From: Kiritimatiellia bacterium
GTDB lineage: Bacteria > Verrucomicrobiota > Kiritimatiellia > RFP12 > UBA1067
Direction: 5' to 3'
Assembly (NCBI GenBank): GCA_045598585.1
Contig: JAZLMG010000023.1
Location: 6,051 to 70,050 of the forward strand
DNA: 64,000 nucleotides
The translations under genes were made by a program, and so were the position numbers. Each line of letters begins with the position of its first letter. Positions within the stretch are counted from its first letter, which is position 1. The notes beneath the pieces were generated by a model. It did no database searches. It saw only the letters and a list, made by a program, of their open reading frames with translations, and was not told the DNA's origin. Below are positions 7,925-60,401 of the stretch, piece after piece.

Positions 7925-7948
7925 GTTGCCTGTTCCCTTTTCTACCAC

Positions 7949-16968: not shown

Positions 16969-17009
16969 CGCCCGTTGGTTTTTTCACTTGCCAACGGGCG
17001 CTTTTTTTT
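16969..17009 (+). terminator. rho-independent terminator after tdh
   Basis: Perfect 10-bp stem CGCCCGTTGG (16969-16978) / CCAACGGGCG (16991-17000), followed by C and T8 (17002-17009). Confidence 0.9.
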
Positions 17010-17017
17010 GGTATAAT
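17009..17017 (+). promoter_or_regulatory. extended -10 box TGGTATAAT positioned for a leaderless transcript of the 863-aa gene
   Basis: TATAAT at 17012-17017. The ATG at 17023 begins 6 nt after the -10 (a second ATG is at 17026). There is no Shine-Dalgarno sequence. Confidence 0.45.
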
Positions 17018-20456: not shown

Positions 20457-20458
20457 TA

Positions 20459-28583: not shown

Positions 28584-28592
28584 TGGTATAAT
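28584..28592 (+). promoter_or_regulatory. extended -10 box TGGTATAAT upstream of the lipoprotein / 6,654-aa gene pair
   Basis: Located in the 215-bp gap after the 2,679-aa gene, ~120 nt upstream of the ATG at 28714. Confidence 0.4.
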
Positions 28593-28713
28593 ATTAAGTG
28601 AACATGGACATATTGACTCTGCACATATCTACCGTTATAAACATGGTGAATAAATGCGGCGCGTTACACCCTGGTGTGACGCGTGAAGGTCGTTGTTTTT
28701 CGGAGGTGGTGAA

Positions 28714-29100
28714 ATGCGCATAAGACCCTTGATTTTATTGGCTGTAATTGCGCTTGTTGTCGGTTGCGAAAAAGCTCCCGAAGCGCCGAAAGAAGTGCCC
28801 GAAGTGTACACGATGAAAGACAATTCGTACATGGAAGATCCGGCGTTTCAATTAAAACTCCGAGAACTGCGCGAGGCGCGCGGGGGGGTCGAAAGCCGTC
28901 GCGAGAAGATTTTGTCCCGACTCGCCTCTTTGGACGAAAGTGAGAGTGCGAAGCGCGCGGAGCTCCAAAAAATGCTTGATGAAGCAAATACCGAACTCGA
29001 AAATATCCGTCAGCGGGTAATCGTGGTATCGCGTGATCGTATCAACCAAGCCGTCGCCGACACCAAGCTTGTCGAAGAAGGTAAGGCCAAGGCCAAGTAA
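28714..29100 (+). CDS. small coiled-coil lipoprotein
   Basis: MRIRPLILLAVIALVVGC|EK (lipobox), followed by a helical, charged region. GGAGG at 28702-28706. The track ORF starts 7 codons earlier at TTG 28693. Confidence 0.75.
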   Translation: MRIRPLILLAVIALVVGCEKAPEAPKEVPEVYTMKDNSYMEDPAFQLKLRELREARGGVESRREKILSRLASLDESESAKRAELQKMLDEANTELENIRQRVIVVSRDRINQAVADTKLVEEGKAKAK

Positions 29101-29115
29101 GGATTTAAATTTAAC

Positions 29116-32100
29116 ATGAAAGCAGGTAACAATATGATGAAGAAATTCCTCTCGCTCATTGCCGCGTTCACTCTCTCGACGCTTGCGGCTTCCGCTGCCG
29201 ACGTCTGGAAGATGTATACGATTCAGGATCGCTACAATCCTACAACGCCGAAGAAGTATACCGCGGCGACGCCCGTTGTCCCCGGTAATACGGTTACTTT
29301 CGCGGTTGAAATCCTTAACAAGGGTTCGGCTTACAATACTACCAAGGATGATGGGGCTCTTCCCACTACCCTTGGAACACCTTGGGGCTTTGTTAATAGC
29401 GGAACCGGTTTCGATGCCGCTTATCCGACGATTTCCGTAAGTGTCGGCGGTCGCCGCGACGAGGCCTCGATTGTCGGCGTATATACCTCGGCTTCGGCGG
29501 GCTATGCTACGGCTCTCGTCTGCGAATATGTCGTCAAACCCGGCGATTTGGCTCGTCCGCTCAAGATTTGGAATAATGAATTCATCGTTACCCCCACCAT
29601 CGGCGGTACCACTATCGGTATCAAGAATAGCGATGGTACGATTTCGACCCCTCAGTGGGGTGATGGCTGGGTCGCGCCTGTAAAGACCGCTAGCCAGGGC
29701 GCAAAGATCGAAACTTCTGAGTCTTATAACTCGGAAGAACGTTTGAACAAGACGCTCGCCGGTTCCAATATCTATGTCGAAGGCGTTCGTTTTGCGACTT
29801 CCGCCCCTGAAAGTAACTCCGCGCCCGGGACTTGGCTCTCGGTTCGCGCCAACTCGACCGAGCTTTTCGGTGGCGAAGCGGCGATCGAAGTGACCGGTGT
29901 TTCGACCTCGAATGGTGCTTCTACTCTCTATATTTGGTCCGGTAATGAAGATGTTATCGATATCGTCGGCGATTCGAACGTCCTCAAGCTCGTTGAGATC
30001 GATCCGAATGCGGAAGTGATTTACAATCCTAGCGACAATCTCGCCGACAAGAAGACCGCCAATGTTTATCAGCTTGTCTTCGCTCAGGGTTCTTGCCGTT
30101 TCAAGCTTCACGCGAAGGATGGTACTTACGATGCCAATAATCGTAAGAGCGCGAAGATTTATGTTTCCACCATGCCCGGCATGGTTCTCAACAACGCGAC
30201 TACAATTATCAACGACTTCATTGAAGCGACGGTTGATGTCATCGCTCCTTCGAAGCCCTCGGTTTGGGTTCGCCTTGATGGCGCTTATGAGCGCGCCGTT
30301 GTTATCGGCTCCGCTTCCCAGCCCAAGATGACCTTGTCGCTCTCCGGGCGCAGCTTCAATGAAACCGTTAAGGTTGACCTCAAGGTCACCTACAATGGTA
30401 TCGAAGAAGATGCGACGACGCCCGAGTTCATCGTTCTCGGCACCGAGTCGGTTAAGGAAACGCGCAACAACATCCTTTCTTACGAGTTCGACCCCGGTGA
30501 GACCGAGAAGGAGATCCACTATTTCTTGAGAGGTGTCCCGGCGGGCGGCAGCTTCTTAATTACTCCTATTTGCAACAAGGTCGCGACGATCGACTGCCAC
30601 GAAGCGCACATGGTCGTGATGCCGAATCCTGCGATTACGAAGGTTGAGGCGAAGGGCTTCCAATCCGGCCGCGCCGGCAAGGTTACCGTTACGATCACCG
30701 ACTCCGAGCGTAACTTCACGCTTGCCGACGATTACAAGGTCGAGTGGTTCTTGAACACCGCTGATGACACTCCTGCTACGGTCAAGAGCGTTACATTCGC
30801 CGACGGTAAGTTCACGCTCACCGGTATTGAGTATAAGCTTCCGGGTAACTATACGAGCCGTGTCGCGGTTACGACTCCTGATGGTGTTACCGTTTCCACC
30901 GATGTCGAAGTTATCGTCAAGGAACTTACCGTCGCGAAGCTCGTTCGCGCGGATGGTACGGCGCTCAAAGAAGCTGTCGGCGAAGATGGTGCCGAGTATA
31001 AGATCGTTCTCGAGCCGAATCCCGGTCACGAAGGCGACCTCTATGCCTATATCGTGGCGACGGATGACGCGGGCGAAAAGCTTATCAAGACGACCGATCA
31101 GGCGCTTCCTTATGCGATGACTGACCGCGCCGGTCTTGACGTGACGAGCGGCGCGACCGAGCCGTTCATGATTAACTTTAATGATAACGGCGTGGTTTCG
31201 GTCACGGTTGTTCTCTCGACCTCGGCTTACTATGATGATACGACTGATGAGACCTATGGCCTCTCGACCGCTAAGCTCAACGTGAAGAACATCGCGGCGG
31301 TTGTCGGTAAGTTCCGTGTCCAGCCCCATGGCAAGACGACTTGGAGCTCCGCCTCGGCTAAGTCAGTTGCCGGTAAGGAATATGCCTACGAAGCTACCTA
31401 CACGGGAACGCTTAAGAGCGAAGAAGAATACAAGCTTCAGGCCTCGATTACCGATGTCACGAACGATCTCGGCTCCGATGTTATCGTCGAATGGCGCGTT
31501 CTTGATGCCGATGGTAACCAGACGGCTATTTTCTACACGAAGACGAAGCCCACGAGCGGTTGGGTCTCGTGTCCTGAGATTCCCGAGTTGACTTGGGAAG
31601 GCAAGCATTTCGTCGAAGTTCGCGCTCTCGATAAGGATCAGATCGCCGCGCTCGTCGTCGGCAATGAAGCCGTTGAAGCGCTTAACGACGATGCGAATTA
31701 TACCGACGGCTTGTTCAACGAGACCTTCGGCCCTGGCGATACGCCGCTCTTTGAAGACTTCGGTACCAATGTAGTCGCGACCCGCTTGGCTCTTACCGTT
31801 ACCAACAAGCCCGGTATGACGGTTGCGCTTGACCGCTTCGCGTATCCTTCCGAAGACGGCACATACCTCGGCTGGCTCGAAGGCGCCGAAGAGCACGAGG
31901 TCACGATTACGCTCGATCAGAATGTGACCGGTGTCAAGGAATCGAAGTTCGATGTTACAATTCTTACGATCGATGATAAGGTTCCTGCGATTACCGATTT
32001 GGCGATTTCCGGAAGCGCTGTCAATAACAAGACTACCGTCACGATTGCCGCGAACAAGAAGACCGCTTCTTTCAAGCTTGTTACGAAGGACGGCAACAAC

Positions 32101-35100
32101 TCCGCGAAGTATAAGATCAACGTTAAGGAACAGGCGCGTCAGGACGGCTCGGTTCAGTTCGCCGATAGCGAAGGCGATTGCACGTTTGCGATTTATAACC
32201 GCACGCCCCAGCTCACGATTTTGAGCGGCGAAGTTATCTCCGATGACAACAACGTTTCTCTTTCGACGAATGCGATTGTCGTCTCCGTTGGCCAGAAGAT
32301 CAACCTCAAGTGGGGTCTCGTCGATGGTTCCGAGACGAATGTAAACGGTAACTGGGACGGCACGACCGTTACCTGGTATAATGGCGAAACCGGCAAGACG
32401 ATTGTCGATAAAGCTGTCCCGAACGCTGAAGGCGAGGGTGAGCTCTCCGTCGCGTTCAAGTCGCCTACCGCCGAAGGTGTTACCTACTCGCTTCGCGTCA
32501 CTTGGGCCGATAAGGATAAGGCCGGCGCTTCGATGACCTGGAAGATCACGGTCGTCGCCGCAAAGACGATTACCCTCTACCCGATGGGTCCGTCGACCGG
32601 CGTTAACTCCACGGGTCTTAACTACCTCTTCCAGAATGCTCTTGGTCTTGGTGCCGGTAAGGTTGAAGTCTATGAATATGCCAAGAACGAGGTGACCGAG
32701 CCGACGGTCTCTAATCACCGCCAGGAATGGACGCTCCCCGGCAATCCTTCCGCCGTTCAGATTTATGCTGAGGGCTACAAGTGGGCTGACGGCGACAACA
32801 AGGGCTATACCCAGTATGAACAGTTCGGAACTGAAGGCGGCGAAAAGTACACCTATAACTACGCTGATCCGCTTTTGAACCGTGCGCGTGATTCGTTCTT
32901 CTATGGCTGGCTTGAAGCCGCACAGGCTGAGAATTCCTCGGTTTACACGGTTACCCGCGTCGGTATGCCCGCTCCCGGCAAGAGCAACGTCTACGAAGTC
33001 TCGCTTCCTACGACCCGCAATGATGATGGCGCGTTCCCGCGCATCATTTACGAAGCGATCTTCTCGCGCGAATCCCGTGAATCCGATAACTGCGGTGATA
33101 TTAACCAAGATGGCATTCCGGATGCTTATGTGACAAAGTTCAAGTTTGGTGTCATTAACGAGGAGAACGAGCTCGCCGGTACTTCCGTTGATATCGATAC
33201 GAACTTGAAGGACTTCAACGAAGATAACGACTTCCTTCCTAGCGCCTCGAGCCAGGGTGGTATTGTTCCCGGACCTCAGTCCAACTGGGCCAATGAGCAG
33301 CACGCTTTTACCGCTTATCAGGAAATCCGTGGTTTCGGCGATGGTCTCAATAACTTCTACTTTGAGGATAACATGGTCGCGAATGCGTCTCGTGTCGGTC
33401 CTCCCGCTGGCACGGCTCGTGACTTTACCCGCGCTGAAGAAATCGCCTTCCAGTTGGCGACGCGCGAAGCTGAGTCCGCCCTCAGTAATGGTGCTCACTC
33501 GAGCCAGCTTACGAGCTCGGCTACCGATACCGCCGTCTCCGCGATGCAGGAAATCGCGAACGCCTTCGTCGATAAAGAAGACGGCGCGATTAAGGCCTAT
33601 ATCGAGGAGCTTGCTACCGCGTCCGAAATGGACTATGTCTATAGCTATCTTAACAAGCAATATCCGCTTCACGCGCTCAATTCCGCGATGAATCCCGATC
33701 GTACGGCCTACAACGAGTTCCTCGCTGATACCGAGGAGCTTGATAAGAAGAAGGCCGAGGGTCACAACGCTAAGGTTAAGTCGCTTACTTCCTCGCTGAA
33801 GAACTCGATTGCCGAGACGCTTAAGACGGCCTATGAAAACGGCCTAAAGCAGGTGAATAACGACATTTCGACCTACGCTCTTAACCACAAGATTGAGGTT
33901 GAAGGTGTCGAACAGCTCTCGGTTAAAGAAGAGCTTTGGAATCCCGATATCATGGGTGCGAAGTGGGGCAATAAGGGCGGCGACATCGCAGCCGTTACCA
34001 ACAAGTATGTCCTTTGCGTGAAGGAGGGCTTCACCGCGAATGCGACGAAGGTCGTTGAGGATAATGGCGAAACGGCGATTTATATTGCCGTCCGCAGCGC
34101 GCTTGAAAAGATGGCTGAAGAAACCGGTGCTGCTGCTCCTACCGTGTACGATGGAGATATCGAAGTTAATATCGATCTTGAGCAGTTTGCCTCGACGCTC
34201 GACTCGAAGATCAACGTCGATCAGATTGCCGCGACCGCCGAAACGGTTGTCGGTTCGATCTTCCGTTGGACGCCAGAACGTCCTACCGATCCTACCGTTT
34301 CCGATACCGATGGCGACGGAATTCCCGACGGCTATGAATACTGGTACTGGTATCGTGCTCATGTCGGCTGGATGCAGGAATGGTCCTATAATGGTGTAAC
34401 CGTTACGAACTATTGCCGTCTTGGCCTTGATACTCGTGAGTTCGAGTGGACCGAGATGGTTAAGGATGCTGCGGGCAATCTCGTTGAGAAGAAGTTCTCG
34501 AACGATTGGACGAAGCCCGATGGTTGGAGGAATACTCCCGGCAAGCCTATGCCCGGTGACAACCGTTGCAAGAAGTTCGACTACGCCGAACCCTTGTCCT
34601 ACAAGTACATTTCCTCCGCCGAGATCAAGAAGATCTACGACCCGCTCGTTAAATCCGGCATGAACTTCGCGACTGTCGATACCGATAACGACGGTCTTCC
34701 CGACCAGCTCGAACTCGAAATCGGCACCGATCCTTTCAATTGCGATTCCGATGGCGATGACATGATCGATGGTTGGGAACACGCCAATGGTCAGGATCCG
34801 CTTACTTGGAACGATTCGAACGATAAGGACTCGACCTTGCGCAATCGCGACGGCGATATGATGGCGATCGGTAAGATCCACTACCTCGCCTTTACCGCCG
34901 GCGGTAAGAAGCATGTCTGGCTCGTCCCGAATCTTGGTTATACGATAGATGGAAAGGGTCTCGACCTTATCGCGTCCGAGCTTACTCATATCCAGAATGG
35001 TGTCGTTACCCAGCGTGTAACGCTCAAGAACCTTACTACTCCGATTCCCGCTGCCGTCTTCTGCGATGGCGAAGCGGAATATAAGTATCCTACCACGACC

Positions 35101-41100: not shown

Positions 41101-44100
41101 TATATCGACCGCAATGGCAACGGTAAGCACGATAAGTTCGAACCTTGGGGCTATGTTAACCAGCTCAACATGGGTCTTAAGGCGATCTATCAGCCCAAGG
41201 CGGTTGGGGAAACCGGCTCGATCATCTTCATCGAAGATACTGATGTCAATCAGAACGAGATCCCGGATATCAAGGAATTCGATCTCTTCTCGGCTGAAGA
41301 TGACTCCGATGACATCAGCAGCGACGACTCCGATGGCGATTCGATTCCGGATGAAGCGGAATTGATTATGGGCTCCGATCCGTTCACCGCCGACGCTGAT
41401 GTTGCCGGCGATGGTGATGTGATGGCATACGCCGAGATGCTTTGCGATGTCGCGCTCTTCTCGAATGGTAAGAGCTATGCGATCAATCCCAAGACCAAGG
41501 AGCTCTATACGACCTTCACCTTCGGCGGCAAGATGATTGTCGGCCGTAAGCTCGAGGGTGCTAATGTCGCCGATGCCGTTTCGATTTCGCGTCGCGTTGT
41601 GACGCTTATCCACGGTGCGGTTTGTGATTTCCTCGGCTATGATGATACGACCGCTCGTGCGACGACTTCGATCGGCGAGGATGGCAAGGTTGTCGTTTCA
41701 TTCGGCAAGGATACGATAGCGTTCTCCAATTACTGGAAGTACATCACGAACGAGAAGTATCTCCCCGAATTCGGCGACTACTCCTATCCCGTTTGCTCGA
41801 ACTATGTCGACTCTAACGCCAACGGCATCGACGACGGCTGGGAGCTTTACTTCGGCTTCTCGAATGCGTTGTCCGCCCATCAGTTCCCAATCGGAGCCAA
41901 CAACATTCGCATTGCCGAGATCGTTTACAACCACAAGATGAGCGAGGCCTCGTCCGCGAGCGACGTGATGGCTTACGCCGAAGTTACCGCGAAGATCGCG
42001 GTTGTTGGCAGCGAGAAGTATGTCCTCGTCTATAATAACGACGGCTCGATTCGCACCTTCCTCCGCACGGCTGAAGTTCCCGGCGCGCAGCACCTCGTTG
42101 CCTACGGTCCGGAAACCGCCGTTCAGCTTAAGGATGTCGTCGTCGATATCGAATCCGGCGAAGTTCTTAGCGAAAACTACCGCGGCGACACCTATGTCTA
42201 CGAAGATACGGTCATCCTTATCCACGGCGCCGTCTTGCAGTACTTCGGCTTCAACGGCTCGACTGCCCGCGTCAACGCGCTCTCGACCCACGACGAAGAA
42301 GAGGGCGGTGAAGAAGGTGGTGAAGAAGGCGATGCTGTCGTAACTCCGACCCTTCCCTCGTTCGGTGGTGCTAACACTGTTCCCTTCACGTACTACTGGA
42401 AGTATGTGACGAGAGAGATGCTCGGCCTCACTCTTGCGGATGGCTCGGAGCTTATCTACGACGCGCTCGACTCGCAGCCGAATGGCATCACGGATGGCTG
42501 GGAACTCTACACGGGTAGCGACGATCCGTTCGCCTTCGCGAATGGCTATGATCCCTACAGCGGCGATGCCGATATGGATGGTATCCCGAATGATTGGGAA
42601 ATCGCCCACGGCATGAATCCCGGCAGTATGTTCGATGGCCTCTTCGCCACGAACGACGATGACGTGATGGCCTACGCGGAAGTCGAGATGACGCTCGTCA
42701 CGAATTCCGAAAGCGGCGAGATCTTCGCGACCTTCGGTAAGCCTCAGGTTGGTGACCTCTTCAAGGACGGCAAGTACTATGCTACCTACCGCTATGGCGC
42801 CTCGCTCTTCTCGACGGTGAACTATGGTATCGGTGCAGAAGTTGATCCCGAAATCTATGGTGAGGCGAGAATCGACCAGGTCGTCGAAACTACGGTTGCC
42901 TTAATTCATAACCAGGTTAAGGAATACTTCGGTTTCGATCCCAAGACGGCGAATGCAGCGGTTCCTGAAGCTGAGCGCGTTAATACGAAGGAATTCACGC
43001 CCTTCGACAAGTACATCACGTTCGTTTACGCTCACGCCTGCAAGTTCCTTGATTTCGACAACTACGACCTCGATCCGTTCTCGGTTGATACCGATATGGA
43101 TGGTCTCCCGGATGGTTGGGAACTCTATGTCGGTACGAAGGCCAACACCTTCGACCGCGACGAAGACCTTGATGGCGATGGTCTCTCGAACCTCGAGGAA
43201 TACAACAAGGGTGATAAGCCGCTCGATCCGACCTCCGGTTCGACCCTCGGCGAGCTTACCGACGATATCGTCGCGAAGTTCGGCCTCAAGACCGAAGCCG
43301 ACCGCTTGAGCGATCCTGATATGGATGGTCTTACCAACTATCAGGAATATCTCGCTTATCTCGCGGGCTATGGTGACTTCGACATCACGAAGGCCGACTC
43401 CGATGAGGATGGTGTCCTCGATTACTTCGAAAAGGTCACCTTCAACGGTAAGGATACCTACGTCGGCTTTGCGGTCTCCGACCACGATATGATGCTCGAC
43501 ACGACGGAAGCTGACTACGATCCGACCTATGTCACTACCGCCAAGTATGACCCGAAGGGCGATGTCGATAAGGATGGTTGGTCGAACTACGCGGAAATGA
43601 CCGCCGGCACCGACCCGACCCGCCTTATCACGAAGGGTATCGACGGCTACACCTTGACCGAGCACCCGGTTCCGCACCTCCCGCTCGAGCTCATCAGCGA
43701 AGATGAGATCAAGGCCTCCGACCGTATCTTCATCACCGCTACTCAGAACGGTAAGACCACCGCGAAGTGGGAAATCGGCAAGGGTGAAGAACGCGAAGCC
43801 GGTGAAGTTACGACCACGGCTCGTCAGTACTCAATGTATGTCGGTATGAATCCCGGCGTTAAGAAGACCTTCCGTCTCTCGCCCGGCAACCTCGATCCTC
43901 GCCGCTTCCGCATCCGTGCAATCCCGACCTTGTGGGAATTGACCGGTAAGAAGAAGAAAGACGACGATTCTTATGAGTATAAGTATGCTCACCGCGATAT
44001 TGACTCCGCGACTTGGGCTGAAATCGCTCAGGACGTCACCCATAACGACGATCCTCACACGGGCTACATCCGTCTCGGTGTCGGAACGACGAACATCGGT

Positions 44101-47100
44101 TCGATCAACTATGTGACCGGCGAAGTTACGATTGATTTCGAGTCCTTCTTCGATGGCTCTATGGTCTGGCAGACCGATATGTCGCGCACAGGCCGCGAAT
44201 GGAACCCGGGCGACGGCTACCAGATCTCGTCCGAATACTACTTCGACCAGGCCTACTTCGTCCTTGAATGGGACGCGACGCCTGAATTCGGCGGCTCGAA
44301 GTCGATCTATCGTCTCAACGACGCGAACGAGGGATTCCTCCGCGAAGGTAAGGCCGACTTCACCGTCTTCGTCGACCAGAACGGTAACGGCGAATACGAC
44401 GAGGGCGAACCTCGCGGCACTCAGCACGATGTTGAAATCGGCTGGGATGTTGTCCGCGGCGTCAAGATCAACCTCGCGAAGTCGACGACCGACCTCTCCA
44501 ACGCGAAGCTCGAACTCATCGCCCCGACGGCTGCGGCCGACGCGGTCGTGACGACCGGCTCGCCGATCTTCCGCTTCAAGTCGCTCGATGGCTACGCCTC
44601 CTACGCTTACACGGTTAAGAAGGGCGACGAAATCATCGAAGAGGGCACGAAGCTCATTAATGGTTCTGCCGCGTTCGAACAGAACTTCCGCTTGACGAAG
44701 CCGCTCTCCGAAGCGGGCGAATACACCTGGTCGGTCATGATCGGTAAGACCACGGCTACCGCCTCGTTTGTCCTTGCCGAGGTCGCCGATTGCACCGAAT
44801 GCGGTTCGATCGAAGTCTCGACGAAGTACTTCGGTCCGAAGTCCGGTAAGACGATCGTCCGCGTCTATGACTCGGCCGACTTTACGGGCACCGTTGTTGG
44901 CGAAGCGACTGCCGACTCTGCGAACTCGATCGTCAAGATCGATCGCATCCCCGCGGGTGACCACTATGTCGTCGCCTTCATCGACGATAACTTGAGCGGC
45001 GAGCGCAACGCTTACGAAAGCTGGGGCTATGTCAACTATCTCGGCGAGAACTCACTCATGACCTTTGTTCCGAAGGCCGTCACGGTCGAAAAGGCGAAGA
45101 CAGCCGCCGCGGTTCTCTACATCGAAGATAGCGATCTTAACAATAACGGCATTGCCGATTCGCTCGAAGATCCGTCGCAGTTCGTGATGTATGACGAGGT
45201 TGAAGAACCCGCCGATACCGATGGCGACGGCATCCCGGACGCATGGGAGAACGAGCAGGGTCTCGACTCCGAAGACGCCTCCGACGCCGCTTCTGCGGTT
45301 GAGGGCGATGTGATGGCCTATATCGAAGTTCCGATGTACCTCGTTACGACCGAGAAGGGTACTTACTTGACCGACAAGAAGCTTATCGTCGGCGATGATG
45401 TCAATCGTATTGCCGGTACGACCTTCTACAGCGTCTATAAGTATGGCTCGCTCAGCAATAGCCCGTATGGTCGCGGTGCTGCGGTGGCGGCCGAAGGTAC
45501 GATCTCGAAGATCGAACCTGTCACGGTCGCCCTCGTCCACAAGCAGGTCTACGATAAGTACGGCTTCAACTCGAAGACGGCGAATCCCTCGATTCCCGCG
45601 AGCGAGCTCGTCAACTCGAAGCCCTTCACGGCTCTCGATAAGTACCTCGCTTCCGCCTATGCGAAGGCCAATGGTTTTGAGGTCTCGCTCCGTGCGGGTG
45701 AAGCTGATGTCGATCTCGATGGTATCCCGGATGGTTGGGAACTCTATGTCGGCCTTAACCCGAACTCCTTCGAAGATCGTCTCTCCGATGGCGACGGTGA
45801 CGGCCTCGCGGCTATCGACGAATATAACGGCGGTAACGTTACCGACCCGAATAACGATCATACTCTCGATCCCGGCATTTCCGATAACTTCGTGATGCTC
45901 TACAACCTCACGAAGGCGAGCGCCGATGACGATGGTGACGGTCTTTCGAACTACGCCGAATACTTGATTACCGAAGTCTTCCGCTTTAAGGAGCTTAATC
46001 CGAAGAATGCCGACTCCGACGGTGACGGCGTCTCCGACTACTTCGAAAAGGTCGGTAACTTCTACCTCGGTGAAGTCTTCGCTGACCACGACCAGATCGA
46101 CGATCAGTGGGAACTTGCTCACGCGACGCTCCCGGGCGCCGATAAGATCTTCGCCAACAGCTCGATCTTCGATCCTACTCGCGATGAAGATAACGATGGT
46201 TGGTCGAACTACGCTGAATTCAAGGCGGGCACCGATCCTCGTGGCGAGTTCACTATCGGCCTTGACAACTACACCGTTGCCGAGTATCCGATTCCGCTCG
46301 TGAAGCTCGATGTTCTTGATAATGTGAAGTCGACCAAGGTCGGCGCGCTCAAGATCGTCGCTTGGAACGATGAAAAGGATCCCAACATGACCGGCGTTCC
46401 GGACGCGATCTGGACGATCGGCTCCGGCTCCGAATCCTCGGGCTCCGGCACTGCCGGCTCGACCGGCGCTCAGACGCTTAACGAATCCTCGCGTTATATC
46501 GGTCAGATTCCTATGGGCGGTATCAAGAGCTTCTACATCGGACCCGGCTCCGTCGCGCCTACCTCGATCGAGATTCAGTTCAACGATCCTGCCGCGATCA
46601 AGAACTTCAGCGAAACCTCCGCTGATGACGAGAAGGTCAACGAGAGCGAAACGCTCGATGCTACGTTCGGTTGGTTCGTGGCGATCAAGGATAACGGTCT
46701 CGGCGATTTGATCCTCGGCGGTACGAACGGTCGTGCGGTCGGTAAGATCGACTACTCGACCGGTTACATGATGATCGACTTCGGCGATCCTACCTTCGAT
46801 ATCCGCCTCGTGGGTAACGAGTACAATCCTTCGTCGACGGATACGACGGTCACGCCGATCAATCCTCGTAACTGCCACGCTCTCGTCAGTTGGAAGGCGA
46901 CGAAGCTCTCGAACTCCGTCTCGGGAACTTATTACCTCGCTGATCCCGACAAGGTCGTTGATGGCAATAGCCGCGGCCGTCTCCGTGAAGGCAAGAACAC
47001 GTTCATGGTCTTTGTCGATACCGAGGCCGGCTCGTCTGAAGGTGATGACACCTTCGGCGACAAGATCGGCTTCACCGTCGGCGAGCCCATGGGCATCGTC

Positions 47101-49080
47101 CGTGGCGTTGATGTCGGCTGGGCCGGCGCTTCCCTTAAGGTCGAACTCACTCGTACGAGCCCGATCTTCGAGCGTATCGATATCTTGAACTCGACCTCCG
47201 ACCGCATCGCGGTTCTCTACCCGAACGCGGCGACCGCCGGCTCTTCGAGCTCGACTACGACGACCGAGTCGGAAGATGGTGATGAAACCACGTCCGCTAT
47301 CGGCTCGTCCTCCTCGAGAAAGATCAAGGATTCGCTCGATAAGATCGGTGAGGAAGTGACCGTCCAGATCTACGTCAAGAGCTACGACACGATCGATGGT
47401 GTCCATACGCTCAATCCGGGCGCGCTCGAGACCAAGCATCACGTCATTTCTGAGACGAATCCTTACCGCATTATCCGTTCGATCCGCATGAACCTCCCTG
47501 TCCGTGGCTTCATCACGGAAGCGGATGTCCTTAACGCGGGTGAATATGATGTCGCTTGGAATGTCTTTAAGAACTTGAAGGAAAATACCGGTCATAACAT
47601 CACGTTCATGAACCTCGGTCTCCAGCTCGTTCTCGATAGCCAGGAAACGCTTGACCTCGGATACGATATCGTTCGCTACTTCGATCAGGCCAATGTCCGG
47701 CTTACGCCGAGCAACCTCTCGGTCACCGATGGCGTGGTTTACGGAGCTCGTCCGACCTTCAATTGGGAAATGCCCGAAACGGCCGATACGAATATGCCGT
47801 TCAATACCTATCCCGCCTTCTTGATCGAGATTGCGGAGGTTAACGGCACCACGACCAATAAGGTCTACGATACCGGCATCAAGTCGCTCACCGTCTTCAA
47901 TGAAGGTAAGTACTCGTGGAAGGCCGACTTCTCGGTTGGTGATCAGCTCCTCTATCGTGATGAGGATGACGTCGATTGCGGCTTCGTCTTGAAGCACAAT
48001 GCCAACTATGTCTGGCGTATCGCGATGCTTAATACGAAGTTCAACATCGCCTTCAATAATGAGGACTTCTCGAAGTACGCTCCTCTCGTCACGGCGGTCA
48101 ACGCCGTCCAGGCGATGAACGACCACAACTACGGCTCGATTAAGGTCGATGTCGCTTACGCGGGTTACTCGAAGGTACTCGCCAAGGTTGCCGAGACGGG
48201 CAGCGAGGCGACTGAACTCGCGGGGCAGATCCGTGTCCAGGCCTTCACAGGCGCCGACTTCGCGGGAACTCCCGTTGCGGAATCGATCGCGACCAAGAAC
48301 GCCGACGGTACGATTACCGCGACCCTCCGTGGCCTCGTCATGGGTGGTACCTACTATGTCCGCGCGTACATCGATCAGGATGGCGATCATACGAAGAGCG
48401 CTTGGGAATCGTGGGGTGTCGCGTCCGATGACATCACGCTCTCGGGCAACCTCGTTCCTGAAATCTCGCTCTTCCTTGAAGATTGCGATGTTGATCAGGA
48501 TTGGCTCCCCGACGCTTGGGAATACGAGAATGCTCGTGACTCGAAGACGGGTAAGGTTCCTGCGAACTTCCTCGCCGTCGAAACCGCCGCGGTTGTCGGA
48601 GATGATAAGGTTGCGCTTAAGAAGGATATCTATGAGAGATTCGCCGCGCGTCTCGCCGCGTTCTCGAATGGTCTCCCCGGCGCTTCGCTTACCACCTTTG
48701 AGAATGCGACGTTCGCCGCGAACCTCCTCGGTGTTGCGAAGAACGATCTCGTCACCGGCAAGCTTCCTTACGAAATCGCCGATGGCTCCGTTAAGATCAT
48801 CGACTTCAAGCTCTCCGCGACCAAGGTTTCGCTTACCTTCGGCGCCGAAGTCTTGACGACGGTCGATCCTACCGCGAAGCACCTCTATGATCTCGCGACC
48901 GATGCCAAGGTTACTGTTAAGATTTTGAAGAAGACCAACTTGACTGACGCGACTTGGACGACCGTCACTACCAAGACCGGTGTGTCGATCGGCGCTGATG
49001 GTACGACCGTCGACGTCAACCTCGGAACGACGCTCAATCTCTCGAGTGGCTTCTTCACGATTGAACTCATCAAGGAATAA
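29116..49080 (+). CDS. giant secreted, repeat-rich, probable Ca-binding surface protein (6,654 aa) with TSP type-3-like repeats, a LamG domain and DUF2141-like modules
   Basis: One uninterrupted 19,965-nt ORF. Signal peptide …MMKKFLSLIAAFTLSTLAASAADVW. N-terminal ~1,700 aa are Ig-like, beta-rich sequence. From nt 34303 onward there are more than 25 D-x-D-x-DG-x-x-D-x-x-E motifs (DTDGDGIPDGYE, DSDGDGVSDYFE, DEDNDGWSNYAEF…). LamG-like domain at ~37600-38275 (AMYFDG…FTVEAWVRP…WYHIAATFDG…IDEVRVWDGARS). Three DUF2141-like ends (YVMAYIDRNGNGKHDKFEPWGYVN and paralogues). Confidence 0.93.
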   Translation: MKAGNNMMKKFLSLIAAFTLSTLAASAADVWKMYTIQDRYNPTTPKKYTAATPVVPGNTVTFAVEILNKGSAYNTTKDDGALPTTLGTPWGFVNSGTGFDAAYPTISVSVGGRRDEASIVGVYTSASAGYATALVCEYVVKPGDLARPLKIWNNEFIVTPTIGGTTIGIKNSDGTISTPQWGDGWVAPVKTASQGAKIETSESYNSEERLNKTLAGSNIYVEGVRFATSAPESNSAPGTWLSVRANSTELFGGEAAIEVTGVSTSNGASTLYIWSGNEDVIDIVGDSNVLKLVEIDPNAEVIYNPSDNLADKKTANVYQLVFAQGSCRFKLHAKDGTYDANNRKSAKIYVSTMPGMVLNNATTIINDFIEATVDVIAPSKPSVWVRLDGAYERAVVIGSASQPKMTLSLSGRSFNETVKVDLKVTYNGIEEDATTPEFIVLGTESVKETRNNILSYEFDPGETEKEIHYFLRGVPAGGSFLITPICNKVATIDCHEAHMVVMPNPAITKVEAKGFQSGRAGKVTVTITDSERNFTLADDYKVEWFLNTADDTPATVKSVTFADGKFTLTGIEYKLPGNYTSRVAVTTPDGVTVSTDVEVIVKELTVAKLVRADGTALKEAVGEDGAEYKIVLEPNPGHEGDLYAYIVATDDAGEKLIKTTDQALPYAMTDRAGLDVTSGATEPFMINFNDNGVVSVTVVLSTSAYYDDTTDETYGLSTAKLNVKNIAAVVGKFRVQPHGKTTWSSASAKSVAGKEYAYEATYTGTLKSEEEYKLQASITDVTNDLGSDVIVEWRVLDADGNQTAIFYTKTKPTSGWVSCPEIPELTWEGKHFVEVRALDKDQIAALVVGNEAVEALNDDANYTDGLFNETFGPGDTPLFEDFGTNVVATRLALTVTNKPGMTVALDRFAYPSEDGTYLGWLEGAEEHEVTITLDQNVTGVKESKFDVTILTIDDKVPAITDLAISGSAVNNKTTVTIAANKKTASFKLVTKDGNNSAKYKINVKEQARQDGSVQFADSEGDCTFAIYNRTPQLTILSGEVISDDNNVSLSTNAIVVSVGQKINLKWGLVDGSETNVNGNWDGTTVTWYNGETGKTIVDKAVPNAEGEGELSVAFKSPTAEGVTYSLRVTWADKDKAGASMTWKITVVAAKTITLYPMGPSTGVNSTGLNYLFQNALGLGAGKVEVYEYAKNEVTEPTVSNHRQEWTLPGNPSAVQIYAEGYKWADGDNKGYTQYEQFGTEGGEKYTYNYADPLLNRARDSFFYGWLEAAQAENSSVYTVTRVGMPAPGKSNVYEVSLPTTRNDDGAFPRIIYEAIFSRESRESDNCGDINQDGIPDAYVTKFKFGVINEENELAGTSVDIDTNLKDFNEDNDFLPSASSQGGIVPGPQSNWANEQHAFTAYQEIRGFGDGLNNFYFEDNMVANASRVGPPAGTARDFTRAEEIAFQLATREAESALSNGAHSSQLTSSATDTAVSAMQEIANAFVDKEDGAIKAYIEELATASEMDYVYSYLNKQYPLHALNSAMNPDRTAYNEFLADTEELDKKKAEGHNAKVKSLTSSLKNSIAETLKTAYENGLKQVNNDISTYALNHKIEVEGVEQLSVKEELWNPDIMGAKWGNKGGDIAAVTNKYVLCVKEGFTANATKVVEDNGETAIYIAVRSALEKMAEETGAAAPTVYDGDIEVNIDLEQFASTLDSKINVDQIAATAETVVGSIFRWTPERPTDPTVSDTDGDGIPDGYEYWYWYRAHVGWMQEWSYNGVTVTNYCRLGLDTREFEWTEMVKDAAGNLVEKKFSNDWTKPDGWRNTPGKPMPGDNRCKKFDYAEPLSYKYISSAEIKKIYDPLVKSGMNFATVDTDNDGLPDQLELEIGTDPFNCDSDGDDMIDGWEHANGQDPLTWNDSNDKDSTLRNRDGDMMAIGKIHYLAFTAGGKKHVWLVPNLGYTIDGKGLDLIASELTHIQNGVVTQRVTLKNLTTPIPAAVFCDGEAEYKYPTTTLLSHGKVLNVAPDALRSRKLILPPDATDFEYGDEMVIMHSQVYNFYGFDPAIAWSQKWDGATVSEHCKAIIRRFDDASDYTSIPYTGYDEYELAWWKRFCCGENVSNFNGLVKATTIAGDIRNADGEVTTYGADTDGDGMPDGWELYVGLNPRDPEDAKRGQDGDGLINSAEFAGTDSCAAYAGVPSIASKLDRSWPNKILPTDPNDGDTDGDGITDSNEKSYFNYAWLDKDKDHQPSAGSFNFISNCVRGGGLNPCSVDTDLDGLPDGWEVQYMGQTVQMYTEGAYYPFDEEIGARSLYTPYMESKEAQIADGYKGDGTFTLPLNVNVIKFVVMGMDGTFAQDSGTLVAPAGDAIAQDQLTDKVRDYDFDHDGLENYQEYMTQTIRGFRYDDTETPLMGHALIWNGDNGDAANLANATDVVLSQDVEELAQALPAFNYSSAEDFLASMTVEDLDLEGNITTKPSELYNAIMADGANRMFAPVAAKQLKTLYARHPLFHNFHSDTETWYVDLDGVPTNGDDLDPTIYTKIEAEDGSSCKFTYVVDAMVPGTKNTVIYTPGTGYDYRALGYFADAKLASDPTVDLGYKHMYKPQSQSHYITELSMIKNVSDRSNADWDYCGFGPKRTASDRYIGTSPLARDTDGDGMDDYYELFHGLNPLYGSSDTISVAYGSAITAKGLSNLWVGLVGEFDAQMNLMPNYLTLPWLNGTTGADPDGDGLSNNEESIVANFTSPRPYHTDPTPRWMTDAAGTFSYTRQYYKDITSLTGKLPWVRVEDQIDEKYSGPDRSGERTGFLFAFEENEGYDTDGDWRGDAQELISGITSGSDPQDFTSPARRQAMYFDGELGSAMMTRFDQTFISYDAIDQFRQFTVEAWVRPDANDVEQVIIERDFWYEGSTMINNVGHYRANFRLGIAADGRVYALFDNANPVESASDLVNSTQRISGDKLECGKWYHIAATFDGKTIRLMINGVAKAWSESTLIPANGITDISSGLGTDEVYPSMGASRREGAFIIGAHLTDAAHDNVPAMRSFGNDLVDCFCGYIDEVRVWDGARSVAEILADHQKSYTRADVEEIRGTVYDAWVEKSTRNDNVTNSMLPPQLMISLSFDTLPAADGEEGISTSPVGFENKVLGNITFNGQPVTDDMIAINWYNKLTGLKSQVYTNPAIVPRARNTAAHLSALNGSFDDSMFWGNNFSGFVPAADRKQSSFAIPQTMNPYADSFITRQRVLQTWRMKRYSNQAGDDSVANLVKMARFDNRSRFDVSTDFYPLGHAYAKTCPDFWDNAGATDSWLDAMADTDADGLPDWWEMYAIEKYGLDPEADITSLTLINRDGVMMLAKDVYLLDYAEIYGNTSTADINKNGIPDWWEDLYGVTDANADEDSDGLSNYQEYLISYGPNASKFNLKLDPKNAFSNPNFAVTDYFAEGPTEDVGIDGKHIFANEYIGEIMTDHDFVEDWWENKYGNGYSSASIYDPYLDRDGDGWDNYSEVRSALWGGLVASSLIDKSLDNHNLVTCYPEPQIGLRVTYFGDKDITGKPLVARATSTQTKRVDAVYNVRGAAASDNAIERSYYLAGSMYDENSIIRGSLHPGSILPGDARFEYVTLSGESSFAWIVWEDIDHKNVHHYGSGTFDDYRDAVRRYGRRRVELLDSVIDWQPLANTISDGEGVAGKILCIADSVNGAPFIGEINFNTGDFEVNCAKLVSAGFAINDVLLRVNYSYKIGYNWPQTIYLSEAETGRILQGKNFIEVFIDIDENGERSEGEPYAIVKNVEVGWHKVPTITVELKDGNTEFGIERTVATSISPIHSAPVYSAAPTFTWSTTNDNSTEFAVRILDSEGKVVFTGERQRITGRDSTTVGGYTYRYTAPAYVGEALKDGETYTWQVIVGNAKFPVDEVTMTNDDFWSIPAEFQMDVANANRYPGIPTGHKSAEITVRYFGPVASEVTADEVIVEAYETADFTGQPMARMPLTVASKLSSRDDVSTADVTLIGLDNKPVYVMAYIDRNGNGKHDKFEPWGYVNQLNMGLKAIYQPKAVGETGSIIFIEDTDVNQNEIPDIKEFDLFSAEDDSDDISSDDSDGDSIPDEAELIMGSDPFTADADVAGDGDVMAYAEMLCDVALFSNGKSYAINPKTKELYTTFTFGGKMIVGRKLEGANVADAVSISRRVVTLIHGAVCDFLGYDDTTARATTSIGEDGKVVVSFGKDTIAFSNYWKYITNEKYLPEFGDYSYPVCSNYVDSNANGIDDGWELYFGFSNALSAHQFPIGANNIRIAEIVYNHKMSEASSASDVMAYAEVTAKIAVVGSEKYVLVYNNDGSIRTFLRTAEVPGAQHLVAYGPETAVQLKDVVVDIESGEVLSENYRGDTYVYEDTVILIHGAVLQYFGFNGSTARVNALSTHDEEEGGEEGGEEGDAVVTPTLPSFGGANTVPFTYYWKYVTREMLGLTLADGSELIYDALDSQPNGITDGWELYTGSDDPFAFANGYDPYSGDADMDGIPNDWEIAHGMNPGSMFDGLFATNDDDVMAYAEVEMTLVTNSESGEIFATFGKPQVGDLFKDGKYYATYRYGASLFSTVNYGIGAEVDPEIYGEARIDQVVETTVALIHNQVKEYFGFDPKTANAAVPEAERVNTKEFTPFDKYITFVYAHACKFLDFDNYDLDPFSVDTDMDGLPDGWELYVGTKANTFDRDEDLDGDGLSNLEEYNKGDKPLDPTSGSTLGELTDDIVAKFGLKTEADRLSDPDMDGLTNYQEYLAYLAGYGDFDITKADSDEDGVLDYFEKVTFNGKDTYVGFAVSDHDMMLDTTEADYDPTYVTTAKYDPKGDVDKDGWSNYAEMTAGTDPTRLITKGIDGYTLTEHPVPHLPLELISEDEIKASDRIFITATQNGKTTAKWEIGKGEEREAGEVTTTARQYSMYVGMNPGVKKTFRLSPGNLDPRRFRIRAIPTLWELTGKKKKDDDSYEYKYAHRDIDSATWAEIAQDVTHNDDPHTGYIRLGVGTTNIGSINYVTGEVTIDFESFFDGSMVWQTDMSRTGREWNPGDGYQISSEYYFDQAYFVLEWDATPEFGGSKSIYRLNDANEGFLREGKADFTVFVDQNGNGEYDEGEPRGTQHDVEIGWDVVRGVKINLAKSTTDLSNAKLELIAPTAAADAVVTTGSPIFRFKSLDGYASYAYTVKKGDEIIEEGTKLINGSAAFEQNFRLTKPLSEAGEYTWSVMIGKTTATASFVLAEVADCTECGSIEVSTKYFGPKSGKTIVRVYDSADFTGTVVGEATADSANSIVKIDRIPAGDHYVVAFIDDNLSGERNAYESWGYVNYLGENSLMTFVPKAVTVEKAKTAAAVLYIEDSDLNNNGIADSLEDPSQFVMYDEVEEPADTDGDGIPDAWENEQGLDSEDASDAASAVEGDVMAYIEVPMYLVTTEKGTYLTDKKLIVGDDVNRIAGTTFYSVYKYGSLSNSPYGRGAAVAAEGTISKIEPVTVALVHKQVYDKYGFNSKTANPSIPASELVNSKPFTALDKYLASAYAKANGFEVSLRAGEADVDLDGIPDGWELYVGLNPNSFEDRLSDGDGDGLAAIDEYNGGNVTDPNNDHTLDPGISDNFVMLYNLTKASADDDGDGLSNYAEYLITEVFRFKELNPKNADSDGDGVSDYFEKVGNFYLGEVFADHDQIDDQWELAHATLPGADKIFANSSIFDPTRDEDNDGWSNYAEFKAGTDPRGEFTIGLDNYTVAEYPIPLVKLDVLDNVKSTKVGALKIVAWNDEKDPNMTGVPDAIWTIGSGSESSGSGTAGSTGAQTLNESSRYIGQIPMGGIKSFYIGPGSVAPTSIEIQFNDPAAIKNFSETSADDEKVNESETLDATFGWFVAIKDNGLGDLILGGTNGRAVGKIDYSTGYMMIDFGDPTFDIRLVGNEYNPSSTDTTVTPINPRNCHALVSWKATKLSNSVSGTYYLADPDKVVDGNSRGRLREGKNTFMVFVDTEAGSSEGDDTFGDKIGFTVGEPMGIVRGVDVGWAGASLKVELTRTSPIFERIDILNSTSDRIAVLYPNAATAGSSSSTTTTESEDGDETTSAIGSSSSRKIKDSLDKIGEEVTVQIYVKSYDTIDGVHTLNPGALETKHHVISETNPYRIIRSIRMNLPVRGFITEADVLNAGEYDVAWNVFKNLKENTGHNITFMNLGLQLVLDSQETLDLGYDIVRYFDQANVRLTPSNLSVTDGVVYGARPTFNWEMPETADTNMPFNTYPAFLIEIAEVNGTTTNKVYDTGIKSLTVFNEGKYSWKADFSVGDQLLYRDEDDVDCGFVLKHNANYVWRIAMLNTKFNIAFNNEDFSKYAPLVTAVNAVQAMNDHNYGSIKVDVAYAGYSKVLAKVAETGSEATELAGQIRVQAFTGADFAGTPVAESIATKNADGTITATLRGLVMGGTYYVRAYIDQDGDHTKSAWESWGVASDDITLSGNLVPEISLFLEDCDVDQDWLPDAWEYENARDSKTGKVPANFLAVETAAVVGDDKVALKKDIYERFAARLAAFSNGLPGASLTTFENATFAANLLGVAKNDLVTGKLPYEIADGSVKIIDFKLSATKVSLTFGAEVLTTVDPTAKHLYDLATDAKVTVKILKKTNLTDATWTTVTTKTGVSIGADGTTVDVNLGTTLNLSSGFFTIELIKE
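39531..48420 (+). repeat. three divergent protein-level supermodules within the giant gene (A 39531-41160, B 43561-45040, C 46183-48420)
   Basis: Each starts D(x)DGW(S/D)NY(A/S)E. Each contains a (F)VD…NG(E)…EGEP…VE(I/V)GW element and a (S/A/R)P(I/T)F(R/T/N)(F/W) domain start. Each then has …(Y/V)(F/A)G(P/Y)… leading into a DUF2141-like …A(Y/F)ID…(E/F)(S/P)WG(Y/V). The DNA copies are strongly diverged. Confidence 0.7.
41416..43134 (+). repeat. three tandem copies of an unrecognised ~150-185-aa 'DVMAYAE…LIHxxV…(F/L)G(F/Y)(D/N)…DGWELY' module
   Basis: Copies at 41416-41856, 41962-42516 and 42661-43134. A fourth lies at 45307-45752. A divergent fifth lies at ~34846-35548 (DGDMMAIGKIHY…VIMHSQVYNFYGFDP…PDGWELYVG). 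Confidence 0.7.
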
Positions 49081-49100
49081 TCAAGAGGTTTGTGTATAAA

Positions 49101-50234: not shown

Positions 50235-50235
50235 A

Positions 50236-51273: not shown

Positions 51274-51312
51274 AGGCGTAGGGAAAAGGTGTAGGTGTAG
51301 AGGAGTTGATAA

Positions 51313-52296: not shown

Positions 52297-52313
52297 CGAA
52301 AGGATATTTGAAC

Positions 52314-56849: not shown

Positions 56850-56861
56850 TCTAAAATATCG

Positions 56862-56867
56862 TATAAT
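56862..56867 (+). promoter_or_regulatory. possible internal -10 box TATAAT upstream of the secretin gene
   Basis: cGTATAAT in the 44-nt gap. AAGAGGAG at 56876-56883 and the ATG at 56894 follow. Confidence 0.3.
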
Positions 56868-56893
56868 ATCCACATAAGAGGAGTGGGACTATT

Positions 56894-60388: not shown

Positions 60389-60401
60389 TAAGGAACGCTT
60401 A

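Follow-up and report, generated by a model that had tools for sequence, protein, structure and literature searches.

How a protein of 6,654 residues leaves the cell that makes it, and what it does outside, is the question raised by a 64,000-nt stretch of DNA from an uncultured gut or rumen Kiritimatiellia bacterium (GenBank assembly GCA_045598585.1, contig JAZLMG010000023.1, positions 6,051 to 70,050 of the forward strand; hereafter, the window). The open reading frame (ORF) of this giant protein runs from 29116 to 49080 on the forward strand, begins with ATG and has its sole stop at the end of its 6,654 codons; the gene of a small lipoprotein ends at 29100, 15 nt upstream of it. A stop-free run of this length at approximately 53% G+C should not arise by chance. 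The mature protein has a mass of approximately 725 kDa and a pI of 4.4. An original prediction, made from the sequence before any database search, saw here a Ca2+-rigidified surface fibre or adhesin exported by Sec and a type II or pilus-like pathway rather than by a type I secretion system (T1SS). The Sec signal, the Ca2+-binding motifs, the modular build and the lack of T1SS signs in that proposal all hold, while the type II or pilus-like route is only plausible. Our overall picture, which we favour with moderate confidence, is of a Sec-exported, Ca2+-stiffened, lectin-bearing surface fibre that has a lipoprotein partner and for which a secretin is the leading export route; the secretin step, taken by itself, is put forward tentatively and may well be wrong.

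The N-terminus of the giant reads MKAGNNMMKKFLSLIAAFTLSTLAASA↓AD and contains the sole hydrophobic segment of the whole protein. The segment is a signal of the typical n-h-c layout (MKKFLSLIAAFTLSTLAASA↓AD), and inspection finds in it no Cys, no twin Arg and no prepilin motif. These observations agree with the predicted 19,965-nt ORF without internal stop and with the predicted Sec signal. Relatives start at the equivalent of MKKFLSL in the giant, so its true start may lie 18-21 nt downstream of the annotated 29116.

The hallmarks of the other export routes are absent where they were looked for. The giant has no GGxGxD match, and no Pfam tile of it matches HemolysinCabind, the models of the repeats-in-toxin (RTX) type. 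It has no LPxTG motif, no C-terminal hydrophobic segment and no PEP-CTERM match in NCBIfam, and its last 30 residues contain one K/R and four D/E. Pfam and NCBIfam find no type A or B sorting domain of the type IX secretion system (T9SS) in the C-terminal tile, and no autotransporter barrel or two-partner secretion (TPS) domain of the type V secretion system (T5SS) in the N- and C-terminal tiles. The class III signal of type IV pilins and pseudopilins (G↓F/M-xxxE, with its N-methylation site) does not occur in the giant and is present in a separate gene at 19614-20456. The 64-kb window holds no genes for an ATP-binding cassette (ABC) transporter, membrane fusion protein (MFP) and TolC system or for an Omp85 protein. 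The T1SS or T5SS signal or partner genes that the original prediction named as its refutation are thus absent from both protein and window, and there is good, if indirect, support for a surface fibre or adhesin that leaves by Sec and uses none of T1SS, T5SS and T9SS. The prediction also saw no recognisable C-terminal sorting signal. None was found, and the C-terminal tile has no Pfam or NCBIfam match at all; the C-terminus is nevertheless not featureless, for it holds a conserved, family-specific beta-sandwich domain of approximately 125 aa that ends in SGF[FY]K[VI] and defines the family.

The domain census that the original prediction had proposed was made with Pfam on ten overlapping tiles of the giant, and it finds only two domain types, TSP3_bac and Laminin_G_3. 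TSP3_bac (PF18884) matches seven of the ten tiles, six of them above the cutoff (27.8-45.5 bits, with a cutoff of 25 bits). The strict DxDxDGxxDxxE motif occurs 27 times and the shorter DxDxDG motif 32 times, compared to 1.2 times in shuffled sequence. These repeated loops, which score above the Pfam cutoff, identify the giant as a TSP3-repeat protein, and the loops are predicted to bind Ca2+. The first strict motif, at aa 1730 (nt 34303), coincides with the point from which the prediction let the motifs begin. The LamG domain that it placed at about 37600-38275 is a clear Laminin_G_3 match (PF13385; aa 2861-2971, nt 37696-38028; E 7e-19; 68.9 bits, with a cutoff of 27.6).

The repeat architecture is likewise as predicted. 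BLAST of each tile against the rest of the giant delimits three supermodules with a mutual identity of 25-45% (Table 1), and the four to five copies of an unrecognised module correspond to five copies of what we call the DVMAY module, starting at aa 1914 (a degenerate copy), 4101, 4283, 4516 and 5398. A profile of the supermodule finds only a weak lanmodulin/EF-hand match in a PDB sequence search. The helical stretch predicted at about 33450-34250 is recovered on composition only: aa ~1421-1600, within the stretch 1446-1712, is the most helix-former-rich and Gly/Pro-poor part of the giant. Alignment gaps show this stretch to be an insertion that is missing from orthologues of approximately 4,000 aa.

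The N-terminal part fits the prediction less well, which had approximately 1,700 aa of Ig-like sequence. Residues ~1120-1183 align weakly with the end of a PKD domain that Pfam detects in a relative (35% identity over 66 aa, E 0.004), and a degenerate PKD-like Ig domain is presumed at aa ~1025-1147 (nt 32188-32556); for the remainder of the first 1,700 aa, Pfam and PDB sequence searches return nothing. The region from aa 29 to 1300 diverges fast, with 24-54% identity to its orthologues, and is collinear with them. Protein-database searches with aa 1-1200 and with the DVMAY module alone each returned no match, which is probably an effect of the word pre-filter and not a true absence.

Structure prediction and Foldseek, also proposed by the original prediction, were run on aa 5390-6654. 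The AlphaFold2 model of aa 6000-6654 (mean pLDDT 72.6) is a chain of beta-sandwich domains with a pLDDT of approximately 80-95, the C-terminal domain included. In Foldseek its sandwiches resemble FN3 arrays of fibronectin (E 4e-7) and also the mastigoneme filament of Chlamydomonas, Gram-positive pilins and MG domains of complement. For aa 5390-6040, the model (mean pLDDT 79.7) contains the DVMAY module as an alpha/beta domain (pLDDT 90-95), a helix-and-loop TSP3 segment and a beta domain. The order in supermodule 3 is DVMAY alpha/beta domain, Ca2+-binding TSP3 segment, beta domain, FN3-like sandwiches and DUF2141-like domain. A Foldseek search against PDB with the model of aa 5390-6040, in which DVMAY was searched inside a multi-domain model, gave nothing better than E 0.03. 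Because its fold is confidently predicted and finds no PDB match in this setting, DVMAY appears to be a well-predicted domain without a known structural relative.

The C-terminal domain connects the giant with a large family. A profile of the last ~125 aa (A2), searched against 1.84 billion representative proteins, gives 270 matches, and among the 150 matches listed the domain stands at the extreme C-terminus in nearly all. On these matches the domain is, as far as sequences can tell, private to one family. That it could be a general sorting tag of unrelated proteins was considered and rejected: the long matches are family giants, and most short matches begin mid-domain and look like fragments, with a few that start with unrelated sequence. 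The giant has the C-terminal domain, Sec signal, LamG, TSP3 and upstream anchored coiled-coil gene by which we define the Kiritimatiellae giant-fibre family, and on its sequence we count it as a member. A search with the last 1,265 aa finds proteins of 30-37% identity, and the closest matches named at NCBI are all from Kiritimatiellae metagenome-assembled genomes (MAGs). Of eight 90%-identity clusters of window proteins that were checked, two (KpsF and the dehydrogenase) include members named at NCBI as Kiritimatiellae MAG proteins. The orthologue search that the prediction had called for thus reveals a large Kiritimatiellae family of 270 representative clusters.

A separate observation concerns the neighbours of such giants. 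In seven related loci (L034, L044, L045, L050, L057, L058 and L065), the first ~800 nt contain the end of a large protein that precedes the lipoprotein gene and ends in ...KKFYKLVVTDVKP, which resembles the C-terminal SGFFKV motif of the giant itself. A terminal strand motif common to neighbouring large proteins might be functionally meaningful.

The 52 full-length representatives of the family range from 3,123 to 7,774 aa, and 49 have a signal-like N-terminus by a simple regular expression, in most cases with a G(D/N)I.(E/S)I-type motif after it. They fall into four length classes (4.0-4.4, 5.0-5.6, 6.3-6.65 and 7.3-7.8 thousand aa), and their length follows the number of DUF2141-like 'WESWG' domains, from one to four (r = 0.84). 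In twelve full-length representatives, LamG is found in 12, TSP3 in 10 and PKD, in the N-terminal part, in 3-4. A scan of GTDB species genomes yields 293 related stretches, and all locus counts given here are from the best 78. Most of these come from gut or rumen MAGs whose labels read Kiritimatiellae, Verrucomicrobia, Lentisphaerae or 'uncultured bacterium' (RUG bins); a few carry bin labels of unrelated taxa. In the best 78 loci, the orthologue is mostly a complete ORF of 3,900-4,350 aa, collinear with aa 1-4056 of the giant plus its C-terminal domain, indicating that the lineage of the window gained two extra supermodules; supermodule 1, common to the ~4,000-aa orthologues, is the ancestral copy. 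The reach of the fibre would thus be tuned in evolution by supermodule copy number, which is 1-4 in the family and three in the giant.

Apparent 'stand-alone' homologues of the last supermodule, 1,200-2,200 aa in length, did not withstand inspection, as the two loci inspected are split giants. In L002 (9940-10010) the giant gene is interrupted by an in-frame TAG in place of F in the conserved RYFGP motif, and in L003 (~9850) by a scaffold gap. A sequencing error, a real nonsense mutation and a recoding event are all possibilities for the TAG. The giant gene of L005 is split into several ORFs, and other short homologues of the last supermodule begin mid-domain and lack a signal peptide. In practice, many database entries for Kiritimatiellae 'hypothetical proteins' of 900-2,200 aa are thus fragments of such giants.

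The most constant companion of the giant is the small protein encoded directly upstream. Its sequence begins MRIRPLILLAVIALVVGC... and combines a lipobox (LVVGC) with a coiled-coil-like tail and the conserved motif Y.M.D..Y...L; GGAGG precedes its probable ATG at 28711. This agrees with the coiled-coil lipoprotein gene that was predicted 15 nt upstream of the giant. Most relatives have a gene for a small anchored coiled-coil protein immediately before the giant gene, and five loci of different wider context (L085, L067, L069, L070 and L078) have it too; there the partner carries a lipobox or an N-terminal transmembrane segment, along with a shared 'RM.D..Y...L'-type motif. As the partner is kept even in these non-syntenic loci, the lipoprotein-giant pair is the most conserved unit of the locus. 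We infer that the two genes form one unit in which the lipoprotein would tether or chaperone the giant through one of the giant's conserved terminal domains. The partnership and the family C-terminal domain, both overlooked by the original prediction as clues to anchoring, are the better leads to it.

The candidate for the outer-membrane step lies downstream on the same strand. Behind three housekeeping genes is a five-gene cluster whose products match Amuc_1102 (Pfam), the PilM-like Amuc_1101 (373 bits), Amuc_1100 (E 7e-17), Amuc_1099 (71 bits) and the Amuc_1098 secretin (432 bits). Only Amuc_1099 passes a curated NCBIfam cutoff; the other scores are under the equivalog cutoffs, indicating that these proteins are distant homologues. 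By these matches, the cluster is a MUL2-like pilus/secretin locus, and its secretin gene lies 7.8 kb downstream of the giant. The intergenic gaps in the series from the giant to the secretin gene are 1-44 nt. A hairpin scan finds no strong terminator from the giant stop codon to 60430, and the hairpin after the secretin gene (60430-60458) is the sole strong one in the scanned 48000-62000. ackA directly follows the giant in 69 of the 78 loci, the full collinear series extends to PilM in 56 and to the secretin gene in 44, and the shortfalls are mostly contig ends. Identity across the related loci is 56-92% for ackA and 39-57% for PilM. The neighbourhood check suggested by the prediction, whether a secretin cluster is nearby, thus turns up a same-strand cluster of the Amuc_1098-1102/MUL2 type whose order is kept in 56 of 78 loci.

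In Akkermansia, the Amuc_1098-1102 proteins are abundant in the envelope and are thought to form pili-like structures (PMC5332112). The Akkermansia cluster is now named MUL2, its Amuc_1102 has been described as archaeal type IV pilin-like, and the locus has been proposed to serve attachment (PMC13174399); MUL genes, pili genes included, are needed for mucin uptake (PMC12418764). We also observe that the Amuc_1099-family protein of the window (55704-56849, +) itself has a TSP3 repeat over the Pfam cutoff (28 bits), the same Ca2+-binding motif as in the giant.

The alternatives can be weighed on these results. That assembly error or decay into a pseudogene accounts for the giant ORF hardly merits belief. 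Relatives do exist in which the gene is split by an in-frame TAG, by a scaffold gap or into several ORFs, yet the 6,654 sense codons of the giant are uninterrupted and 52 intact full-length representatives are at hand. No DNA repeat within the giant gene exceeds 69 nt in length or 82% in identity, and the one tandem repeat is trivial, which makes the collapse or expansion that the original prediction wished to have checked unlikely. A separate database sequence of 6,305 aa, P0259, is collinear with the giant and has the same three-supermodule layout (identity is 78% over the last 2,390 aa, which have 35 gap positions, 54% over the N-terminal 2,400 aa and 40% between the two), indicating that this layout is real. 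Export by one of the classical giant-adhesin routes (T1SS, T5SS or T9SS), with a signal or partner genes that were missed, is very unlikely as well. All that could speak for it are weak NCBIfam matches to CglD and MtsD, which come from shared TSP3 repeats; against it, a cleavable-looking N-terminal signal takes the place of RTX repeats and a C-terminal T1SS-type region, no TPS, autotransporter or T9SS model matches, and the window lacks ABC/MFP/TolC and Omp85 genes. We also consider it quite improbable that the giant remains a structural or scaffolding matrix inside the periplasm or cell envelope, without ever being exposed at the surface. A Sec signal without a recognised outer-membrane sorting signal, and a partner that is a membrane-anchored coiled-coil protein, would suit such a matrix. 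The arrays of TSP3, LamG and FN3/PKD-like domains and the copy-number-driven variation in length are, however, typical of extracellular adhesins, the rapid divergence of the N-terminal region suggests contact with the environment, and a 725-kDa fibre would be hard to fit into the periplasm.

More serious is the possibility that the giant is a surface or extracellular Sec-exported fibre whose export depends on a general type II secretion system (T2SS) or another pathway encoded elsewhere, the adjacency to the cluster being inherited gene order in a gut clade; we regard this as unlikely, though it is the alternative that we take most seriously. It would account for ackA, pta and kpsF between giant and cluster, for the family members of other context that retain the lipoprotein partner and not the secretin cluster, and for the placing of the GspG-like pseudopilin in a separate upstream unit. 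It sits less well with an order that is kept in 56 of 78 loci though identity falls to 56% for ackA and 39% for PilM, with the tight packing and the single strong terminator after the secretin gene, and with the lack of any other outer-membrane channel gene in the window. The co-directional packing, the single terminator and the conserved order make the secretin the best available candidate. Several observations nevertheless weigh against it and keep the link conjectural. The three housekeeping genes separate giant and cluster, so that the synteny may reflect inherited gene order. Adjacency is absent in distant members: five non-syntenic relatives in the GTDB scan have a protein of ~1,500 aa downstream of the giant and no secretin nearby, and the distant relative L085, which is additional to these, has an M4 peptidase and a GH10 protein downstream, again with no secretin nearby. 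No GspE/PilB ATPase or platform protein (GspF/PilC) for the cluster is encoded within the window, and a cargo of this size would be unprecedented, as we know of no T2SS substrate of approximately 725 kDa. T2SS cargo has no sequence signal that could be looked for.

In the surface-fibre model that we favour, the giant would be an acidic modular fibre of 725 kDa that Sec exports past the cytoplasmic membrane and that most likely ends up on the cell surface. Its chain of beta-sandwiches (FN3/Ig/PKD-like and DUF2141-like) would be interspersed with TSP3/EF-hand-like loops that bind Ca2+ and stiffen it, and LamG and the several DVMAY alpha/beta domains are candidate ligand-binding parts. The surface location, the lectin function and the Ca2+-dependent rigidity are predictions, and it counts against the picture that the first 1,300 aa yielded neither a structure model nor a database match. 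The fibre would cross the outer membrane through the co-directional, probably co-transcribed Amuc_1098-family secretin module and capture glycans or particles alongside the pilus-like system. A bolder version takes the lipoprotein-giant pair as the cargo or filament of a Planctomycetes-Verrucomicrobia-Chlamydiae (PVC) secretin machine of the Amuc_1098-1102/MUL2 type, a 'one-chain pilus' threaded through the secretin to capture glycans or particles for the uptake system; we consider this improbable.

Comparison with known systems shows what is familiar in this giant and what is not. Giant adhesins of the RTX/T1SS type, such as LapA, SiiE and MpIBP, have C-terminal RTX repeats and an uncleaved C-terminal signal, and no cleavable Sec signal. 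Like the giant, they are acidic, Ca2+-dependent chains of beta-sandwiches with ligand-binding modules, a length that varies with repeat number and a role as surface adhesins. The giant differs in its N-terminal Sec signal, in having neither RTX nonapeptides nor a C-terminal T1SS signal, and in the absence of ABC/MFP/TolC genes nearby; its Ca2+ binding is predicted from TSP3-type loops, whereas RTX or bacterial Ig-like (BIg) interfaces serve in T1SS adhesins. The T9SS adhesins of the Flavobacterium SprB type, repetitive Sec-dependent surface filaments of a diderm with approximately 6,500 aa, resemble the giant in size, Sec dependence and repetition, while no T9SS C-terminal domain was detected in the giant. 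With Myxococcus CglD and MtsD (NF033765 and NF047639), envelope proteins with roles in adhesion or cohesion, the giant shares bacterial TSP3 repeats; scores of 13-26 bits, compared to cutoffs of 400-800, show that the likeness is limited to the repeat, and size and architecture differ.

Giants of the Dockerin type in Omnitrophota, some of them TSP3-rich, adjoin T2SS-like loci (bioRxiv 10.1101/2023.11.21.568195), a precedent that favours the secretin route as a candidate. They resemble the present giant in coming from PVC-related lineages, in their bacterial TSP3 repeats, in their predicted extracellular location and in lying near type II/IV-like secretion genes. The Omnitrophota proteins are at least 30,000 aa long, have dockerin and discoidin domains and belong to a locus of more than 10 genes that includes gspD/E/F (bioRxiv 10.1101/2023.11.21.568195). 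The present giant, in contrast, has 6.7 thousand aa, LamG and the novel DVMAY domain, and a five-gene locus of the Amuc_1102-1098 type without an ATPase; its Pfam tiles match neither Dockerin nor F5_F8_type_C. With the Akkermansia Amuc_1098-1102/MUL2 locus the window shares the gene order downstream of the giant, so that the likeness is one of neighbours and not of the giant itself. The literature searched makes no mention of a giant TSP3/LamG gene beside the Akkermansia locus, which was not itself inspected. Consecutive genes of Apilactobacillus kunkeei, Giant1-5, are reported to encode extracellular surface proteins of 3,000-8,000 aa (PMC12863079). In arrangement they recall the tandem of a 2,681-aa protein (giant-1, below) and the 6,654-aa giant in the window; A. 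kunkeei is a monoderm, and envelope and domains differ from those of the present host and giant.

PVC giants with TSP3 repeats have been reported before (bioRxiv 10.1101/2023.11.21.568195; PMC12057145), and a giant repeat adhesin or fibre is, as a kind of object, already known. What appears undescribed in the literature searched is the family itself, its private C-terminal domain, the DVMAY domain, the obligate lipoprotein partner and the position at the head of a MUL2-like secretin operon.

What is understood of giant Ca2+-binding adhesins in diderm bacteria comes mainly from the T1SS, T5SS and T9SS routes. The family described here counts at least 270 representative clusters, its longest member has 7,774 aa, and it is frequent among Kiritimatiellae of gut and rumen; it has a Sec signal and none of the hallmarks of those routes. 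Three features offer a handle on it: the conserved lipoprotein partner, the private C-terminal domain and the conserved placement heading a MUL2-like pilus/secretin operon. If the secretin link is true, it becomes testable how a very large folded fibre crosses the outer membrane without a T1SS, and also what a system of the Amuc_1098-1102 type handles. Should the 'one-chain pilus' be real, a biomedically prominent and mechanistically obscure locus would gain a defined substrate.

Table 1. Features of the giant-protein locus, in window coordinates (aa numbers refer to the giant).
Feature	Coordinates (nt)	Strand	Basis
Upstream unit: 863-aa secreted protein, DUF1559 pseudopilin, giant-1	17023..28498	+	overlapping starts/stops
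Extended -10-like element TGGTATAAT	28584..28592	+	sequence inspection
Small partner protein, 129 aa from ATG	28711..29100	+	sequence; ORF listed from TTG 28693
Giant ORF, 6,654 aa	29116..49080	+	
Sec-type signal peptide, aa 1-28, ASA↓AD	29116..29199	+	sequence inspection, hydrophobicity
Family-specific N-terminal region, aa 29-1300	29200..33015	+	orthologue collinearity
Helix-prone insertion, aa 1446-1712	33451..34251	+	composition, orthologue gaps
First TSP3-rich region, aa 1718-2800, with degenerate DVMAY-type module at aa ~1914	34267..37515	+	Pfam, motif count
LamG/concanavalin-like lectin domain, Pfam core aa 2861-2971	37603..38295	+	Pfam E 7e-19
Supermodule 1, aa 3290-4090: TSP3 repeats, beta-sandwich domains, DUF2141-like 'WESWG' domain	38983..41385	+	
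Two extra DVMAY modules, aa 4099-4515	41410..42660	+	tile BLAST, motif search
Supermodule 2, aa 4516-5390	42661..45285	+	tile BLAST
Supermodule 3, aa 5398-6480	45307..48555	+	tile BLAST, AlphaFold2, Foldseek
Family-specific C-terminal beta-sandwich, aa 6530-6654, ends ...SSGFFTIELIKE	48703..49077	+	family profile, AlphaFold2
ackA, pta, kpsF (housekeeping), between giant and pilus-like cluster	49092..52296	+	packed, gaps 1-39 nt
Amuc_1102-like, PilM-like (Amuc_1101 family), Amuc_1100-, Amuc_1099- (TSP3) and Amuc_1098-family secretin genes	52308..60388	+	
Intrinsic-terminator-like hairpin, 11 pairs, 8 G-C	60430..60458	+	hairpin scan

The region upstream of the lipoprotein gene adds some detail. 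The element TGGTATAAT lies in an AT-rich gap of 195 nt and is a candidate promoter of the lipoprotein-giant unit; promoters of PVC bacteria are poorly known. The unit that precedes this gap contains the GspG-like DUF1559 pseudopilin gene (19614-20456, +) and giant-1 (20453-28498, +), whose secreted 2,681-aa product has a Sec-like signal. Giant-1 has no Pfam or NCBIfam match and is homologous to a protein of 3,100-3,500 aa at the same position in relatives (25% identity, E ~1e-131), and two of three precomputed entries for these counterparts have a Gly_rich_2 match. Giant-1 and the 863-aa protein were considered as kin of the giant and dismissed, as no similarity between either of them and the 6,654-aa protein could be detected. 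Upstream of 17023, at 16988-17017, is a strong promoter-like site (11 of 12 matches, with TG), and the genes at 17023-20456 (+) together with giant-1 look like a separate surface-protein operon with its own pseudopilin.

Both giant genes contain long antisense ORFs, at 35659-39630 (-), 45052-48882 (-) and 22325-25624 (-), of 1,323, 1,276 and 1,099 aa. They are probably shadow ORFs that result from codon bias, and they could mislead gene callers. Elsewhere, a 479-aa ORF at 12736-14175 (+), without a Pfam or NCBIfam match, has the Cys/Lys-rich termini MACKCKKCSC... and ...KKPCAKKCCKKAK and overlaps the start of an APH-family kinase ORF at 14025. Rfam has no match in the window. The G+C content is 39-50% in the first 12 kb of the window, compared to 52-57% in the rest. 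dnaN, dnaA and mnmG lie together at 6830-11581 (-), indicating that the window is probably near the chromosomal replication origin.

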